A DNA stretch of 8,581 bases from Promethearchaeota archaeon. GTDB lineage: Archaea; Asgardarchaeota; Odinarchaeia; Odinarchaeales; JBHLKK01. Positions 768 through 5,266 of the stretch are shown here, piece by piece. A program made the translations under genes and the position numbers. The stretch spans positions 1 to 8,581 of the forward strand of contig JBHLPL010000083.1 of NCBI GenBank assembly GCA_048939465.1. The letters run 5' to 3'. The notes beneath the pieces are model-generated. The model searched no databases. It saw nothing but the letters and a program-made list of their open reading frames with translations, and was not told the origin of the DNA. Numbering within the stretch: position 1 is the stretch's first letter; each line of letters begins with the position of its first letter.

Positions 768-1172
768 TTGTTTAAGTTTCCTTCAGCAGAATGGATCAAA
801 GAGTTTCATAAAATATTAAATGAAAACGAATCTTATCAAGAAGCTGCAAAGAACTGGGAAGGAGATTTTCTCTTTGTAATCACACCAGACGAGGGGCTAG
901 ATAGAGAGTATGTCTACTACATGGATCTATGGCACGGGAAATGTAGAGCGGCCAGTCTTCTGAAGAGCCGAGATGAAAAGAAGGCCGCTTTTACTTATGA
1001 AGGCCCCTATTCAAACTGGAAGAAGCTACTTCAAGGCAAAATAGACCCAATTAAAGGTCTACTTACAAACAGATTCAGATTGAAGGGAGATATGGCAAAG
1101 GTAATGAGGGCCACCAAGGCTGCCAAAGAACTCGTCGCAACTACAATGAAAGTCAAAACGGAGTTTAAATGA
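768..1172 (+). CDS. SCP2 sterol/lipid-binding domain protein, paralogue A (PF02036 type)
   Basis: FPSAEW start, NWEGDFLF, DLWHGKC, and the C-terminal WKKLLQGKIDPIKGLLTNRFRLKGD pattern typical of SCP2. TTG start with GGAGG 8 nt upstream. Confidence 0.9.
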   Translation: MFKFPSAEWIKEFHKILNENESYQEAAKNWEGDFLFVITPDEGLDREYVYYMDLWHGKCRAASLLKSRDEKKAAFTYEGPYSNWKKLLQGKIDPIKGLLTNRFRLKGDMAKVMRATKAAKELVATTMKVKTEFK

Positions 1173-1193
1173 AAATGCTGTGAGGCTGCAGTT

Positions 1194-2360
1194 ATGTGGT
1201 TCTTTACTTCACCTAGGACGATTGCCTTCGGTGAGGGGAGCTTGGAATATCTGAGAGAACTCGAAGGAGAAAGAGTGTTTATTGTAACTGATGCAGTGCT
1301 AAGGAATTTAGGCATAGTAGACAAGGTCAAGGAGCAATTAAGAGATAGGATCGAAGTTTTGGTTTTTGATGAAGTTGAGTCAGAGCCATCAAAGCAGACT
1401 GTCAATAGGGGCGCAAAGATCCTTTCCAAATTCAAACCAGACTGGATCATCGGTCTCGGTGGTGGATCATGTATGGATGCAGCGAAAGCCATGTGGGTTC
1501 TATATGAAAGACCTGATTTAACCATAGAAAGCATTGATCCGATCAAGAAACTTGGTTTGAGGAAGAAAGCACATCTAATAAACATCCCAACGACTTCTGG
1601 AACAGGTGCAGATGTGACCTGGGCAGTAGTTATTACCGACACGGAGATGAAGGCGAAGCTTGAATTAGCTTCAAGAGAGGTGGTTGCAGATATTTCCATA
1701 CTAGATCCGTCTCTGGTTTCGAACTTACCCCCCAGATTGACAGCAGATACAGGAATGGATGTTTTGGTTCATGCCATCGAGGCCTACACGGCTCAGTGGA
1801 AGAATGACTTCAGTGACGCTTTTGCTCTACGGGCAGTTCAGACGGTATTTGATTATCTGCCAAGAGCGTTCAAAAACGGGAAAGACGATCCGGAAGCACG
1901 AGAAAAAATGCACAATGCAGCTACAATGGCTGGATTAGCTTTCGGAAATTCACAGATATGTATTGCTCATGCAATGGGACATAGTCTTGGAGCTGTCTTC
2001 AAAGTTCCTCACGGTAGATCCGTTTCAGTCTTCCTCCCATACGCGATGGAATACAATTTGCCTGAAGCAACCGAACTATATTCTCAGCTCGCCGACGCGG
2101 TGGGTATTCGTAGGGGAGCCAATGAAGACAAAGCCAAGGAGTTTATTCGAGTCATCAGAAATCTAATGGAAGAAATCGGTGCCCCATCCAGAATAAGGGA
2201 TATCGGTATTTCACGTGAAGAATTCGAGGCAAAACTGGATGAACTGACTGACAAGGCGATTGAATCAACCGGTACTATCGTCAATCCTCGTGTTCCGGGT
2301 GAAGAAGACTACAAAAAACTCTTCTTATACACCTACGAGGGCAAAGGCATAGATTTCTGA
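1194..2360 (+). CDS. adh: Iron-containing (class III) alcohol dehydrogenase (PF00465 type)
   Basis: GLGGGSCMDAAK NAD(P)-binding motif and IPTTSGTG. Metal ligands in GMDVLVHAIEAY, IAHAMGH and PHG. The N-terminus resembles AdhE/butanol dehydrogenase ADH domains. Confidence 0.95.
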   Translation: MWFFTSPRTIAFGEGSLEYLRELEGERVFIVTDAVLRNLGIVDKVKEQLRDRIEVLVFDEVESEPSKQTVNRGAKILSKFKPDWIIGLGGGSCMDAAKAMWVLYERPDLTIESIDPIKKLGLRKKAHLINIPTTSGTGADVTWAVVITDTEMKAKLELASREVVADISILDPSLVSNLPPRLTADTGMDVLVHAIEAYTAQWKNDFSDAFALRAVQTVFDYLPRAFKNGKDDPEAREKMHNAATMAGLAFGNSQICIAHAMGHSLGAVFKVPHGRSVSVFLPYAMEYNLPEATELYSQLADAVGIRRGANEDKAKEFIRVIRNLMEEIGAPSRIRDIGISREEFEAKLDELTDKAIESTGTIVNPRVPGEEDYKKLFLYTYEGKGIDF

Positions 2361-2367
2361 GTGAGGA

Positions 2368-4215
2368 ATGCTAATGGGCTATACTTCCAGAATTTTGAGA
2401 GTAGATTTGTCAAAAGGTAAGATCTCTGAAGAGAAAACCGATAAGAGACTCACGAAGAAGTTTCTTGGCGGCAGTGGCCTTGCGTGCGGAATCCTCTATG
2501 ATATGATAGATGAAAACACGAATCCCTTAGGGCCTGAAAACCCCCTCATTTTCATGACGGGGCCTCTGACCGGCACTATAGCACCTTCATGCGGAAGATA
2601 CTGTGTATGTGCGAAATCTCCCCTAACAGGGATTTGGGGTGAATCAAATTCTGGAGGAAGATTCGGCCCTATGCTCAAGTTCTCAGGATTTGATGGGATT
2701 ATTGCTACTGGAAGGTCAAAGAAACCCGTATATTTGCTGGTGATTGATGGCACTCCAGAGTTAAGATCGGCCAAAAGCCTGATGGGTAAGACTACTTTCG
2801 AAACCCAGGAATTAATAATCGAGGAAACTGGTGAGAAGAGAATGAGTGTGGCATGTATCGGTCCTGCAGGAGAGAATCTCGTTAAGTACGCTGCAATCGT
2901 GAACGATGGTCGAAAGGGGGTCGGCCGAAAAGGCGTGGCAGGCAGAACAGGAATGGGTGCTGTCATGGGCTCAAAAAGTCTCAAGGCAGTAGCAACTGTT
3001 GGTTCTAGGAGAGTCCAGCTGGCAGAATACGAGGAATTCAGAAAGGCAGCCAAAGAGGCAAATGCCATAGTCAGCGAGGCCACGAGTACAGATATGTATA
3101 AGCAAGTCGGTACTGGCGGCTTTGTCGATATGGCCCAAGAAATTGGTAGCATGCCAAACAAGTATTTTACTTCGGGTGTTTTCGAAGGTGCCGGAAGAAT
3201 AAGCGGATCCACAATGACAGAAACAATACTTATAAGAAATTCGGCATGCTATGGGTGCCAAATTGGTTGTGGTAGGGTGATTGAAGTCAAAGAGGGAAAG
3301 TACGCGCTGCCTGAAACAGATGGGCCAGAATACGAGACTCTCTGTGCCTTTGGATCTCTTATTCTAAACGACAACCTGGAGGGGTTGGCTTACGCAAACT
3401 ATCTCTGTAATGCCTATGGCATCGATACAATCAGCTGCGGCTCAACAATAGCATTTGCAACATACCTCTATGATAAGGGAAAGATATCTAGAAGTGATAC
3501 CAGGGGAATTGAGCTCAACTGGGGGGATGTTGATACAGCCATTCTGCTGATAAGAATGATTGCTGAGAGAAGAGGATTTGGCAGGACTCTATCGGAAGGA
3601 GTGAAAAGAATAGCTGAGAAATATGATGCAACGGATTATGCTGCAGAAGTGAAAGGTCTTGAAATACCCTTTCACGATCCCAGAGGCTTTTTCGGCATGG
3701 CGTTGTGTTATTCTACTTCTCCCAGAGGCGCTTGTCATCTAAATGGGGACTTATTCATGGTTGACCTCGGACAAGAATTCCCTGAACTTGGAATAGTCTC
3801 CGGGGACAGATTTGATGAAGAAGATAAGCACTTCGTCGTCACAAAAGCGCAGAATTGGAGAACTGTCTACAACTCGATGATTATGTGTCAATTCTGCAAT
3901 CCACCGCCAGGAACAATTGCAAGACTACTGACGTATTCAACAGGTCAGAAATACGATATTGGGGATCTTGACCTGCTGGGTGAAAGGATATTTAACCTTA
4001 AGAGGTGTCTGAACGTTAAGCTTGGAACATCTTGTAAAGATGATTATTTGACAAGAATCATGTTGACGCCTTTGAAAGACGGTGGAACAGAGGGAAGGGT
4101 TCCAGATCTGCAGAAGATGCTCGAAAAATACTATGAACTGAGACAATGGGACCGTAAAACCGGAAAGCCGACAAAAGAGAAACTGGAGCAACTGGATCTG
4201 CAATATTTGAAGTAG
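2368..4215 (+). CDS. aor: Tungsten-containing aldehyde:ferredoxin oxidoreductase family protein (AFOR_N + AFOR_C)
   Basis: GYTSRILRVDLS start, AKSPLTG, GESNSGG, GAVMGSKSLKAV, CxxCxxxC (CYGCQIGC), GPEYET, YGIDTIS, RGACH and distal MCQF. Alternative start at ATG 2374. The subfamily and substrate cannot be determined. Confidence 0.95.
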   Translation: MLMGYTSRILRVDLSKGKISEEKTDKRLTKKFLGGSGLACGILYDMIDENTNPLGPENPLIFMTGPLTGTIAPSCGRYCVCAKSPLTGIWGESNSGGRFGPMLKFSGFDGIIATGRSKKPVYLLVIDGTPELRSAKSLMGKTTFETQELIIEETGEKRMSVACIGPAGENLVKYAAIVNDGRKGVGRKGVAGRTGMGAVMGSKSLKAVATVGSRRVQLAEYEEFRKAAKEANAIVSEATSTDMYKQVGTGGFVDMAQEIGSMPNKYFTSGVFEGAGRISGSTMTETILIRNSACYGCQIGCGRVIEVKEGKYALPETDGPEYETLCAFGSLILNDNLEGLAYANYLCNAYGIDTISCGSTIAFATYLYDKGKISRSDTRGIELNWGDVDTAILLIRMIAERRGFGRTLSEGVKRIAEKYDATDYAAEVKGLEIPFHDPRGFFGMALCYSTSPRGACHLNGDLFMVDLGQEFPELGIVSGDRFDEEDKHFVVTKAQNWRTVYNSMIMCQFCNPPPGTIARLLTYSTGQKYDIGDLDLLGERIFNLKRCLNVKLGTSCKDDYLTRIMLTPLKDGGTEGRVPDLQKMLEKYYELRQWDRKTGKPTKEKLEQLDLQYLK

Positions 4216-4754: not shown

Positions 4755-4794
4755 AGTTCTAATGAAACACAAGGCGGAATCACTCCTATCTTTC

Positions 4795-4811
4795 CAAAAA
4801 AGGTATATAAA
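4795..4811 (+). promoter_or_regulatory. Strong BRE+TATA promoter for SCP2 paralogue B
   Basis: CAAAAAAGG-TATATAAA, ~50 nt upstream of TTG 4862. Confidence 0.72.
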
Positions 4812-4861
4812 CGACTGGACACACATTATTAGATGCTTCACAGGTGGTGGGAGGTAGGAAT

Positions 4862-5266
4862 TTGGTTAGGTTTCCATCCGAAGAATGGGTAAAAGAGTTT
4901 CACAAACTCATAAACGAAAGCGAAGCATATGCAGAATCTGCGAAGAATTGGGAAGGAGATTTCCTGTTTGTCGTTACACCTGATGAGGGGCTGGACAGAG
5001 AATGGGTGGTTTATGTGGATTTGTGGCATGGAAAATGCAGGAACGCCCGGCTCTTGAAAAGCAGAGATGAAAAAACAACTGCATTCACTATGGAAGGCCC
5101 CTACTCTAATTGGAAGAAATTGATTCAAGGCAAAATTGGACCAATTAAAGGGATACTCACAGGCAAGTTCAAGCTCAAGGGGAGTAAGATGAAGATCCTC
5201 AAGAACAGAAAGGCTGCGGGAGAACTCGTTGCGACTGCAGCAAAAGTTCCAACCGAATTCGTTTAG
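4862..5266 (+). CDS. SCP2 sterol/lipid-binding domain protein, paralogue B
   Basis: 96/134 residues identical to 768..1172 by manual alignment. I reassigned the start to TTG 4862: SD GGAGGT is at 4850-4855 and the length then equals paralogue A. Confidence 0.9.
   Translation: MVRFPSEEWVKEFHKLINESEAYAESAKNWEGDFLFVVTPDEGLDREWVVYVDLWHGKCRNARLLKSRDEKTTAFTMEGPYSNWKKLIQGKIGPIKGILTGKFKLKGSKMKILKNRKAAGELVATAAKVPTEFV

Follow-up and report, generated by a model that had tools for sequence, protein, structure and literature searches.

Recruitment of greasy substrates for a partner enzyme by the SCP2 fold is established for SCPx, a thiolase-SCP2 fusion in eukaryotes, and for MFE-2, alkylsulfatases and UbiJ. 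Acid reduction by AOR together with ADH is known in Pyrococcus and clostridia, and AORs sensu stricto, the closest to the AOR described below, have a broad substrate range. For the AOR and ADH routes of anaerobes, we know of neither an SCP2 partner nor an SCP2-ADH-AOR operon; literature searches likewise found no published description of an SCP2-Fe-ADH-AOR module, in agreement with a previous sequence-only reading of this DNA, which knew of no characterised operon of this composition. The SCP2 protein of Thermus thermophilus, which occurs in open and closed forms, has a hydrophobic cavity that is lined by W83, L102, and L112 and is about half the size of that of human SCP-2L, and its conserved Cys60 is in a disulfide with Cys13 (PMC11533139).

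Organisation of the locus and its proteins

The window, i.e., the whole stretch of DNA that was analysed, is an entire contig of 8581 bp from the genome of an Asgard archaeon of the Hodarchaeota (G000, its congener being G001). The module genes lie at 768-5266, all on the + strand, and the features are as follows:

2..190, +: C-terminal part of a DUF35-type protein (ChsH2-like OB/zinc-ribbon), the gene being cut by the contig end
192..662, +: second DUF35 protein (OB_ChsH2_C and zf-ChsH2, Pfam 49.4 and 25.3 bits)
706..735, +: candidate BRE/TATA-like footprint, core CCTATAAGT at 710-718, conserved with the congener
768..1172, +: SCP2-A, 134 aa, TTG start (Pfam SCP2 52.3 bits, cut-off 21.3)
1194..2360, +: Fe-ADH (group III), 388 aa (Pfam Fe-ADH and ADH_Fe_C)
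2368..4215, +: AOR, tungsten/molybdopterin family, 615 aa (Pfam AFOR_N 257.9 bits, AFOR_C 425 bits)
4284..4754, +: flavodoxin-like protein, about 156 aa, ORF opening at GTG 4275 (Flavodoxin_4 49.8 bits)
4796..4810, +: candidate BRE/TATA box AAAAAAGGTATATAA, an invariant block between G000 and G001
4862..5266, +: SCP2-B, 134 aa, TTG start, ORF from 4844 (Pfam SCP2 46.4 bits)

The ORF coordinates reproduce the spacing given by the sequence-only reading, with 21 nt between SCP2-A and Fe-ADH (1173-1193) and 7 nt between Fe-ADH and AOR (2361-2367). The true AOR start is more likely ATG 2374, which is preceded by GAGGA at 6 nt and is where the alignment with homologues begins; the second gap would then be 13 nt. 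Given AGGTGA 6 nt upstream, ATG 4284 is a more likely flavodoxin start than GTG 4275, while the SCP2-B start at TTG 4862, which gives 134 aa, has GGAGG 7 nt upstream and is kept in the congener. ORFs and Pfam matches also bear out that a flavodoxin and a second SCP2 follow AOR.

The footprint at 706-735 is near-invariant between G000 and G001, with intergenic DNA that diverges on either side, and a T-rich tract at ~670-700 separates it from the DUF35 gene. It is a candidate promoter for SCP2-A/ADH/AOR, and the previously proposed single promoter driving these three genes is plausible. The conserved AAAAAAGGTATATAA box suggests that SCP2-B is probably on a separate transcript. ORF 2-190 alone has no Pfam match; a thiolase assignment was rejected in favour of a second DUF35 paralogue, based on 83% identity to the leading member of the tandem DUF35 pair of G001.

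SCP2-A and SCP2-B are 72% identical, with common motifs. SCP2-A belongs to a distinct SCP2 subfamily, marked by the motifs WEGD and LWHGKC and by having only one cysteine, and its AF2 model (pLDDT 96.4) has T. thermophilus SCP2 (2CX7) as best Foldseek match (TM 0.83-0.86), with a profile match to 1WFR/2CX7 at E 6e-31. The Thermus cavity residues align with W84, F103, and V112. Of 58 relatives, 56-57 keep these positions as W, F/L/M, and I/V/L. Since the cavity of the Thermus homologue is only about half that of human SCP-2L, very long chains are not implied. Cys59 is a lone thiol, the position matching Thermus Cys13 not being a Cys.

Fe-ADH displays the GGGS motif and all the metal ligands (D189, H193, H259, H273). 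In AOR, whose best PDB matches are 9mqx and 1AOR (438 and 431 bits), the aligned ligands include the CxxCxxxC motif, a fourth Cys, and Glu and His near the metal. With these catalytic motifs intact, both enzymes look active. The phosphate-loop motif S-R-T-G-N-T is readable in the flavodoxin, which scores ~71 bits against NCBIfam PRK07116, under the cut-off of 198.

Conservation of the SCP2, Fe-ADH and AOR genes

Related loci come mostly from a peptide-pattern scan, of which the 80 most similar of at least 590 were kept; frequencies thus describe near relatives rather than the whole family, and the counts overstate the evidence, as related loci are not independent. In the 73 loci, counted at species level, where the sequence continues for at least 600 nt past SCP2 (mostly from these best 80 of at least 590), Fe-ADH follows SCP2 on the same strand in 58, starting no more than 250 nt away in 43 of them, and where there is room for a third gene (51 loci), it is AOR in 36 and a PF00171 NAD-type aldehyde dehydrogenase in 7. 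Of the 15 loci without ADH, eight have LuxC, usually with LuxE, and seven have neither ADH nor LuxC. The SCP2/Fe-ADH pair also recurs in loci retrieved by routes other than the scan. The linkage, which the sequence-only reading had considered might be unique to one genome, is therefore a recurrent one, and the synteny of SCP2, Fe-ADH, and AOR is strongly conserved, recurring in many sediment archaea, both Asgard (Hod-, Hermod-, Heimdall-, Thor-, and Jordarchaeia) and of other lineages (Bathyarchaeia, Nezhaarchaeota, Thermoplasmatota, Nitrososphaeria, Marsarchaeota), and in Chloroflexota (Anaerolineae, Dehalococcoidia). The SCP2 subfamily itself is carried by 221 of the 301 Asgard genomes that are at least 80% complete.

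The conserved core is SCP2, Fe-ADH, and an aldehyde-to-acid enzyme. The interpretation given by the sequence-only reading is partly supported: the SCP2/Fe-ADH/AOR core of the cluster is widespread, but among the loci compared, a flavodoxin homologue inside the module and a second SCP2 copy at the SCP2-B position are found only in this genus, i.e., also in the congener.

All 50 SCP2-linked ADHs form one clade (SH-aLRT 99), outside of which falls the genome's own paralogue on contig C84 (31% identical). The AOR phylogeny, suggested by the sequence-only reading, places most linked AORs (24) in a clade of their own (SH-aLRT 97), leaving outside the four other AORs of the genome. The Thermoproteota locus L063 groups with Hodarchaeota genes in both trees and its SCP2 is among the closest (69%), so that the triad seems to travel as a unit. 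As for fusions, SCP2 and Fe-ADH form a single 717-aa protein, found on two contigs, an SCP2-LuxC fusion exists, and a B12-radical-SAM-SCP2 fusion adjoins a PEMT/ICMT-type methyltransferase; no SCP2-thiolase fusion was found in the fusion searches.

Only ~28 of 76 loci have lipid-related genes nearby, and the kind of gene varies with the lineage. In G001, the gene order is ACAD (- strand), methyltransferase, two thiolases, two DUF35 genes, and SCP2; in G000, contig C25 ends with ACAD, a methyltransferase, and a cut thiolase, while contig C107 carries a beta-oxidation cluster. Beta-oxidation genes adjoin the triad in two phyla, and in the Bathyarchaeia loci L073-L075, a full beta-oxidation cluster, with genes for acyl-CoA synthetase, ACAD, enoyl-CoA hydratase, 3-hydroxyacyl-CoA dehydrogenase, DUF35, and thiolase, is divergent from it. 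One bacterial locus associates SCP2, Fe-ADH, and a patatin, and another SCP2 and 3-hydroxyacyl-CoA dehydrogenase. Among the loci compared, the link to DUF35/thiolase beta-oxidation that had been proposed is limited to an adjacency in this genus and, for a few Bathyarchaeia, a cluster in divergent orientation; here, moreover, the terminator-like T tract makes DUF35/thiolase a neighbour that lies outside the operon.

Proposed function and alternatives

We consider, with slightly better than even confidence, that the module interconverts a poorly soluble alcohol, the aldehyde, and the free acid, with SCP2 as a carrier; what class of substrate is used, that SCP2 carries it, which partner takes the electrons, and which way the reactions run are inferred. 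In the three-gene core unit, Fe-ADH would be NAD(P)-dependent and AOR of the tungsten type, and SCP2, as a separate protein, would provide a hydrophobic cavity; together they would act without CoA esters on a medium- or long-chain aliphatic, possibly isoprenoid, substrate. The phytanol, isoprenoid, and alkane-derived substrates put forward by the sequence-only reading are speculative candidates. The SCP2 cavity would take the alcohol or aldehyde and hand it to the enzymes, or shield the reactive aldehyde. AOR electrons would go to a low-potential carrier, and the adjacent flavodoxin is a possible and, in this genus, plausible acceptor. The oxidative direction would be favoured, with activation of the acid by an acyl-CoA synthetase followed by beta-oxidation, and the same genome encodes genes for both. 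The replacement of AOR by aldehyde dehydrogenase or LuxC/LuxE in other lineages fits such an alcohol/aldehyde/acid route.

A rather unlikely alternative is a fermentative redox pair for short-chain or amino-acid-derived alcohols, aldehydes, and acids (e.g., ethanol-acetaldehyde-acetate), in which SCP2 would not be a carrier but would, for instance, stabilise or assemble ADH. Fe-ADH is indeed nearest to the ADH domains of AdhE, which acts on ethanol/acetaldehyde (solved structure 3ZDR, 307 bits; NCBIfam AdhE, 380 bits), the module AOR is nearest to the P. furiosus type, an acetate--CoA ligase-like gene lies ~4 kb past the cluster in the congener, and lipid genes are missing from the surroundings of many loci. 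However, a hydrophobic-cavity fold that is conserved beside ADH across phyla, and sometimes fused to it, is hard to square with water-miscible substrates, and the same SCP2 subfamily is paired with LuxC/LuxE-family genes and lies beside beta-oxidation clusters. In addition, a second Fe-ADH/AOR pair of this genome, on C84 and without SCP2, could cover short-chain needs.

It is also unlikely, in our view, that the module runs in the reductive direction, with AOR using reduced ferredoxin or flavodoxin to turn fatty acids into aldehydes, from which ADH would make fatty alcohols, as an electron sink or as wax/ether-lipid building blocks, and SCP2 taking the insoluble product. Such a direction has its precedent in the acid reduction mentioned above, and both the SCP2-LuxC fusion and the Thermoplasmatota arrangement, in which SCP2 has a LuxE-like gene on one side and a LuxC-like gene on the other, the two types that form aldehydes from acids, would be in keeping with it. 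In contrast, the swap of AOR for an NAD-type aldehyde dehydrogenase, in practice an aldehyde-to-acid enzyme, favours oxidation in those seven loci, the beta-oxidation neighbours are also consistent with breakdown, and none of the genes observed next to the triad is a wax-ester or ether-lipid synthase. Finally, that SCP2-A works with the upstream thiolase/DUF35 as a split archaeal SCPx, with incidental ADH adjacency, is very improbable: although in this genus SCP2-A comes right after a pair of thiolase-like genes and a pair of DUF35 genes, and SCPx itself fuses thiolase with SCP2, thiolase/DUF35 adjoin SCP2 in only ~4-5 of 78 loci, far from the frequency of Fe-ADH (58 of 73), DUF35 is set apart from SCP2-A by a T-rich tract and by a promoter-like box that is conserved, and the searches brought up an SCP2-ADH fusion but none of SCP2 with thiolase.

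Comparison with known systems

Carrier-assisted interconversion, the reading we prefer, can be set against several described systems. LuxC/LuxE-family genes, whose characterised relatives in the fatty-acid reductase of bacterial bioluminescence convert fatty acid to fatty aldehyde, flank the SCP2 subfamily in Thermoplasmatota; these are distant relatives, as they score above Pfam thresholds but far under the NCBIfam equivalog cut-offs, and LuxC/LuxE are absent from the window and the rest of this genome. The AOR and ADH routes of anaerobes, such as those of the Pyrococcus furiosus (1AOR) and Aromatoleum aromaticum (8C0Z) AORs, involve the same families and the same CoA-independent chemistry, but the module AOR belongs to a subclade travelling with SCP2-ADH.

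SCPx, MFE-2/HSD17B4 (1IKT), the SdsA1/Pisa1 alkylsulfatases (2CFU, 2YHE), and UbiJ (6H6N), all among the structural matches of SCP2-A, have the SCP2 fold attached to enzymes acting on hydrophobic alkyl or isoprenoid substrates. They belong to a different subfamily, with TM of only ~0.5-0.6, and, unlike in these enzymes, the SCP2 of the module is a separate small protein, rarely fused, whose partners are Fe-ADH and AOR.

The putative SCP2 of T. thermophilus HB8 (TT1886; 2CX7, 1WFR) is of the same subfamily, with ~30% identity and WEG and LWHGxC in common, but has the Cys60-Cys13 disulfide where SCP2-A has the lone Cys59 thiol. TT1886 is presumably TTHA0401. TTHA0401 is listed at the head of a FadR-regulated operon that includes the 'zinc-binding dehydrogenase' TTHA0400 (PMC5597230). 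If the two are the same, the Thermus partner would be zinc-type, versus iron-type here, with AOR absent in the Thermus case, and an SCP2 and alcohol-dehydrogenase pair would lie within a fatty-acid regulon.

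Gene order and probable transcription units

The host metagenome-assembled genome (G000) is archaeal, 1.96 Mb in size, 91% complete and 43% G+C, and the window is the whole of its 8581-bp contig C3, with the following genes.

Genes of the window, in order
2-190, plus strand: DUF35 paralogue, cut at its 5' end
192-662, plus strand: DUF35 protein
768-1172, plus strand: SCP2-A
1194-2360, plus strand: iron-type alcohol dehydrogenase (Fe-ADH)
2368-4215, plus strand: AOR-family enzyme (AOR)
4275/4284-4754, plus strand: flavodoxin-like protein
4862-5266, plus strand: SCP2-B
downstream of SCP2-B: proteasome beta subunit and hypothetical genes

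The gaps of 21 nt between SCP2-A and ADH and of 7 nt between ADH and AOR were right as first stated. Shine-Dalgarno spacing suggests starts at ATG 2374 for AOR, together with homologue alignment, and at ATG 4284 for the flavodoxin. SCP2-B, read from TTG 4862, has 134 aa and is 72% identical to SCP2-A. Both SCP2 genes start with TTG (768 and 4862), as they do in the congener (L042:10507 and 6412), unlike ADH, AOR and flavodoxin, which start with ATG; the TTG starts may lower translation of the carriers relative to the enzymes, or may have no meaning at all.

Promoters were sought by setting the two intergenic regions against those of the congener, and each region holds one conserved block in diverged surroundings. 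Some 50 nt before SCP2-A, and downstream of a T-rich tract that follows the DUF35 gene, the block is BRE/TATA-like (706-735); the other block, 5' of SCP2-B, is a clear AAAAAAGGTATATAA box at 4796-4810. From these blocks we infer a split into separate transcription units, in which the DUF35 gene is probably the end of one transcript, the next probably comprises SCP2-A, ADH and AOR, perhaps with the flavodoxin, and SCP2-B probably has its own promoter. The single promoter initially proposed for SCP2-A, ADH and AOR is plausible, with the 706-735 element as its candidate. A search of sequencing runs listed no RNA sequencing runs containing the locus; it is present in DNA datasets, namely metagenomes of mangrove and sediment.

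Upstream of its SCP2-A, the congener carries an acyl-CoA dehydrogenase gene and two copies each of thiolase-like and DUF35 genes. The end of another G000 contig (C25:4659-7552) carries an acyl-CoA dehydrogenase (minus strand), a methyltransferase (plus strand) and a thiolase cut at the contig end, in the order found upstream of the congener's triad of SCP2, Fe-ADH and AOR, on which basis C25 probably joins the start of the window (the 1-190 side) across a gap of about 2.5 kb of missing sequence.

Conservation and history of the linkage

Presence and linkage of the module are confirmed. A homologue of SCP2-A is found in 20 of 41 Asgard relatives, and in most of the Asgard loci extracted an Fe-ADH follows the SCP2, usually then an AOR. 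The SCP2 belongs to a distinct Thermus-type subfamily with WEGD and HGxC motifs, present in 221 of 301 Asgard genomes at least 80% complete. A species-level scan by peptide pattern, with one genome per GTDB species, gave at least 590 loci of the subfamily, the best 78 of which were analysed. Synteny of SCP2, Fe-ADH and AOR had been named earlier as a refutation test, and the linkage is not unique to this genome: among these best 78 of at least 590, which are nearest relatives and, coming from related genomes, non-independent samples, a same-strand Fe-ADH is present in 58 of the 73 loci with downstream sequence, starting within 250 nt of SCP2 in 43 of them, and the third gene, where there is room for one, is an AOR (36/51) or an NAD-type aldehyde dehydrogenase (7/51). 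Within the same best 78 of at least 590, eight loci with no ADH have LuxC, usually with LuxE, and only seven have neither ADH nor LuxC. Characterised members of the LuxC and LuxE families convert fatty acid to fatty aldehyde. Host genomes come from five Asgard classes and from Bathyarchaeia, Thermoplasmatota, Nitrososphaeria, Marsarchaeota, Anaerolineae and Dehalococcoidia, and the SCP2-ADH pair also occurs in Nezhaarchaeota and in a high-G+C bacterium.

This conserved linkage upholds the module proposed in the sequence-only reading, together with its alcohol/aldehyde/acid logic, which is well supported by comparative genomics. The flavodoxin and SCP2-B, which that reading had counted into the cluster, and the DUF35/thiolase neighbours are seen with the module only in the host genus and are additions outside the conserved core.

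Phylogenies of the two enzymes point to a shared history. All 50 of the 50 SCP2-linked ADHs fall in one clade (SH-aLRT 99), set off by a long branch both from an unlinked Dehalococcoidales paralogue and from a second Fe-ADH of G000, which lies on contig C84 and is 31% identical. Placing the AOR in a phylogeny had been advised earlier; the 24 AORs directly after an SCP2-ADH pair form their own clade (97), with the four other AORs of G000 outside it. In both trees, the ADH and AOR of Hodarchaeota, to which the host genus is assigned, group with a Thermoproteota locus (L063) and not with other Asgard, and the Hodarchaeota SCP2 is 65-69% identical to Bathyarchaeia/Thermoproteota versus 54-59% to other Asgard homologues. 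Since all three proteins are closest to Bathyarchaeia/Thermoproteota, the triad appears, from these comparisons, to have been passed between phyla as a single block.

Several loci depart from this arrangement. In six Thorarchaeota loci (L093, L094, L101, L102, L105 and L112), four to five extra genes lie between SCP2 and ADH-AOR (about 7400-11900 in each), encoding a radical SAM/SPASM enzyme, a tandem pair of 135-aa proteins that match nothing in Pfam, a methyltransferase-TPR protein and, at most of these loci, also a FabK-like reductase of the NMO family. A PHP-domain gene lies 5' of SCP2 in 15 loci. Some Bathyarchaeia loci have a TPP enzyme between ADH and AOR; its nearest NCBIfam models are acetolactate-synthase-like and all under cut-off, and these matches were uninformative as to a 2-hydroxyacyl-CoA lyase, an identity also considered. 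At L043 (G022:C54:204-3640, from an Asgard genome, proteins 74-77% identical), SCP2, ADH and AOR are each split by stops into several ORFs, reflecting either a decaying copy or poor assembly. G000 itself holds a second AOR (42% identical) convergent with the second Fe-ADH, without SCP2 (C84:43881-46979), which may be its pair for soluble substrates.

The putative carrier and its enzymes

Both SCP2 proteins of the window match Pfam PF02036 (SCP2-A 52.3 bits, SCP2-B 46.4 bits; cut-off 21.3), and the AF2 model of SCP2-A (pLDDT 96.4) has the alpha/beta SCP2 fold. By far its best Foldseek match is the 'putative SCP2' of T. thermophilus (2CX7/1WFR, TM 0.83-0.86), with rabbit, human, yeast and insect SCP2 at TM 0.55-0.60 and probability 1.00. 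In the Thermus homologue, W83, L102 and L112 line a hydrophobic cavity that can be open or closed and is reported to be about half the size of that of human SCP-2L (PMC11533139). These three residues align with W84, F103 and V112 of SCP2-A, positions that are hydrophobic in 56-57 of 58 relatives. Also near-invariant in the subfamily are W30-E31-G32-(D33), H56-G57 and C59, including in sets not selected by motif; in loci L062-L139, H56, G57 and C59 are invariant partly because the scan pattern demanded them, and conservation was therefore judged on the sets found by similarity. Cys59 is the sole cysteine in 94 of the best 120 database relatives, and the cysteine is often missing among more distant relatives (wider family, 50% clustering). 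Its Thermus equivalent, Cys60, is disulfide-bonded to Cys13 (PMC11533139), whereas the position matching Cys13 is not a cysteine in SCP2-A.

The conserved polar residues allow another reading, in which the subfamily would be an aldehyde-holding shuttle rather than a passive lipid carrier. Glu31, His56 and Cys59 would bind a hydrophobic aldehyde reversibly, for instance as a thiohemiacetal within the cavity, and SCP2 would pass it from the enzyme that makes it (Fe-ADH or LuxC) to the one encoded alongside that uses it (AOR or aldehyde dehydrogenase). If true, this would be a protein carrier for a toxic intermediate, ACP-like in its logic and without a prosthetic group. We regard this shuttle as very improbable; that Cys59 holds an aldehyde is possible, as pure speculation. 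A complex prediction for SCP2-A and Fe-ADH, with alignments for both, scored 0.01, which counts neither for nor against binding.

The ADH has Fe-ADH N- and C-terminal Pfam domains (154 and 178.7 bits), a GGGS dinucleotide motif (G89-G90-G91-S92) and all the metal ligands (D189, H193, H259 and H273), of which D189, H259 and H273 do not vary across 50 relatives. It falls under the cut-off of every NCBIfam equivalog, the best being the AdhE model (380 bits versus a cut-off of 951), and its closest solved relatives are the ADH domains of AdhE. The AOR (AFOR_N 257.9 bits, AFOR_C 425 bits) can be aligned over its full length to 1AOR, from P. furiosus, and to 9mqx; in the 1AOR alignment, CxxCxxxC, the fourth Cys, the EYE glutamate and the CH histidine are all matched, residues that we take to be the four [4Fe-4S] cluster ligands and the Glu and His near the metal. 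It scores higher against AORs (438 and 431 bits to 9mqx and 1AOR) than against FOR (299), WOR5 (202) or BamB (182), with the GAPOR model at E 8e-7. Judged by sequence, it is a member of the tungsto-bispyranopterin family, in which tungsten and molybdenum cofactors read alike, and its closest relatives are broad-range enzymes. The flavodoxin-like protein matches Flavodoxin_4 (49.8 bits, cut-off 24), has an S-R-T-G-N-T loop near its N-terminus and falls far under the cut-offs of the NCBIfam flavodoxin models.

Fusions were sought by a profile search run exhaustively over 1.8 billion representatives, which found 1450 relatives, and by a word-index search for long fused forms. The former includes a 717-aa SCP2-Fe-ADH fusion that occurs on two contigs, each from a different sample, and whose ADH is of another Fe-ADH lineage (33% identical to the window ADH); the sole match of the latter is an SCP2-LuxC fusion, with no AOR-SCP2 fusion of this subfamily. 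The profile-search relatives also include SCP2 fused to a TIR domain (P0247, 305 aa) and to a methyltransferase domain (P0224, 382 aa). At L144:5219-7681 and L145:2507-4969, an 820-aa B12-binding radical SAM enzyme carries a C-terminal SCP2 of the subfamily's family, and its neighbours, a PEMT/ICMT-type methyltransferase and a 3beta-HSD/epimerase-like gene, mark it as a candidate for lipid modification with the carrier built in. On the minus strand of contig C21 of G000 (about 10400-12000; L005:1417-3011), a GNAT acetyltransferase with a C-terminal SCP2-like domain is encoded twice in tandem (about 270 aa each), an architecture recalling Eis-type acetyltransferases; a further GNAT and an O-methyltransferase come next.

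Substrate, direction and known systems

A hydrophobic substrate, with SCP2 as its carrier, is likely; the SCP2 fold, lipid-gene neighbours, the LuxC/LuxE pairing and a beta-oxidation cluster in G000 (contig C107) all point to such a substrate. Three Bathyarchaeia loci have, divergent from the triad, a complete beta-oxidation set (acyl-CoA synthetase, acyl-CoA dehydrogenase, enoyl-CoA hydratase, 3-hydroxyacyl-CoA dehydrogenase, DUF35 and thiolase); a patatin-like lipase follows the SCP2-ADH pair at one further locus, and a more distant SCP2 precedes a 3-hydroxyacyl-CoA dehydrogenase at another. Weighing against it are the kinship of the ADH to AdhE domains, the broad range of the AOR's closest relatives and the small size of the Thermus cavity. 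An obviously lipid- or acid-related neighbour is moreover present in only about 28 of 76 loci among the best 78 of at least 590. The replacement of AOR by aldehyde dehydrogenase and the beta-oxidation neighbours favour the oxidative direction, and the LuxC/LuxE pairing makes an acid-reducing context possible for the same SCP2. An SCPx-type system of thiolase and SCP2 is unsupported: a thiolase adjoins the subfamily in only about 4-5 of the best 78 of at least 590 loci, and the fusion searches (profile-search relatives and word index) gave no thiolase fused to it.

Six Thermoplasmatota loci (L091, L096, L099, L103, L111 and L118; e.g., L118:3209-5173 onward) share a recurrent set of five genes, which encode a FAD_binding_4 protein of 654 aa, a distant paralogue of SCP2 (25-30% identical, without the WEGD/HGxC motifs), a LuxE-like acyl-protein synthetase, a subfamily SCP2 and a LuxC-like reductase. 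The set has the look of a fatty-acid-reductase module of archaea that includes two lipid carriers. Its FAD_binding_4 protein has no clear relative, and its identification as an alkyl-DHAP synthase is unsupported, with weak GlcD/LctD-like matches only.

Anoxic sediments are dominated by Bathyarchaeia, Asgard archaea, Thermoplasmatota and Chloroflexota, whose handling of lipids, waxes and hydrophobic detritus is, to our knowledge, poorly known. With this widespread, unannotated module, insoluble alcohols and aldehydes would enter the metabolism of these groups independently of CoA, and low-potential electrons would be gained as well. As its parts are small and easily expressed (AOR excepted), the hypothesis is directly testable.

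Routes between acid, aldehyde and alcohol by AOR and ADH are known, as are proteins in which an SCP2 domain is joined to an enzyme acting on hydrophobic substrates (SCPx, MFE-2, alkylsulfatases and UbiJ), all of which are among the structural matches of SCP2-A. The Thermus protein of 2CX7 (TT1886) is, we assume, TTHA0401. TTHA0401-TTHA0400 is an operon derepressed in a fadR mutant, encoding a hypothetical protein and a zinc-binding dehydrogenase (PMC5597230). If the two proteins are the same, this operon would be a further lead towards a hydrophobic substrate. A full-text literature search gave no description of an SCP2, ADH and AOR module, in line with the initial remark that no characterised operon has this composition. 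The Thermus-type family, solved in 2004-2005 without a function, gains a testable partner and role. In contrast to the known fused enzymes, the SCP2 here is stand-alone, and the new element, as far as sequence comparison can tell, is that its subfamily pairs near-obligately with one dedicated clade of Fe-ADH and usually also with a dedicated AOR clade.
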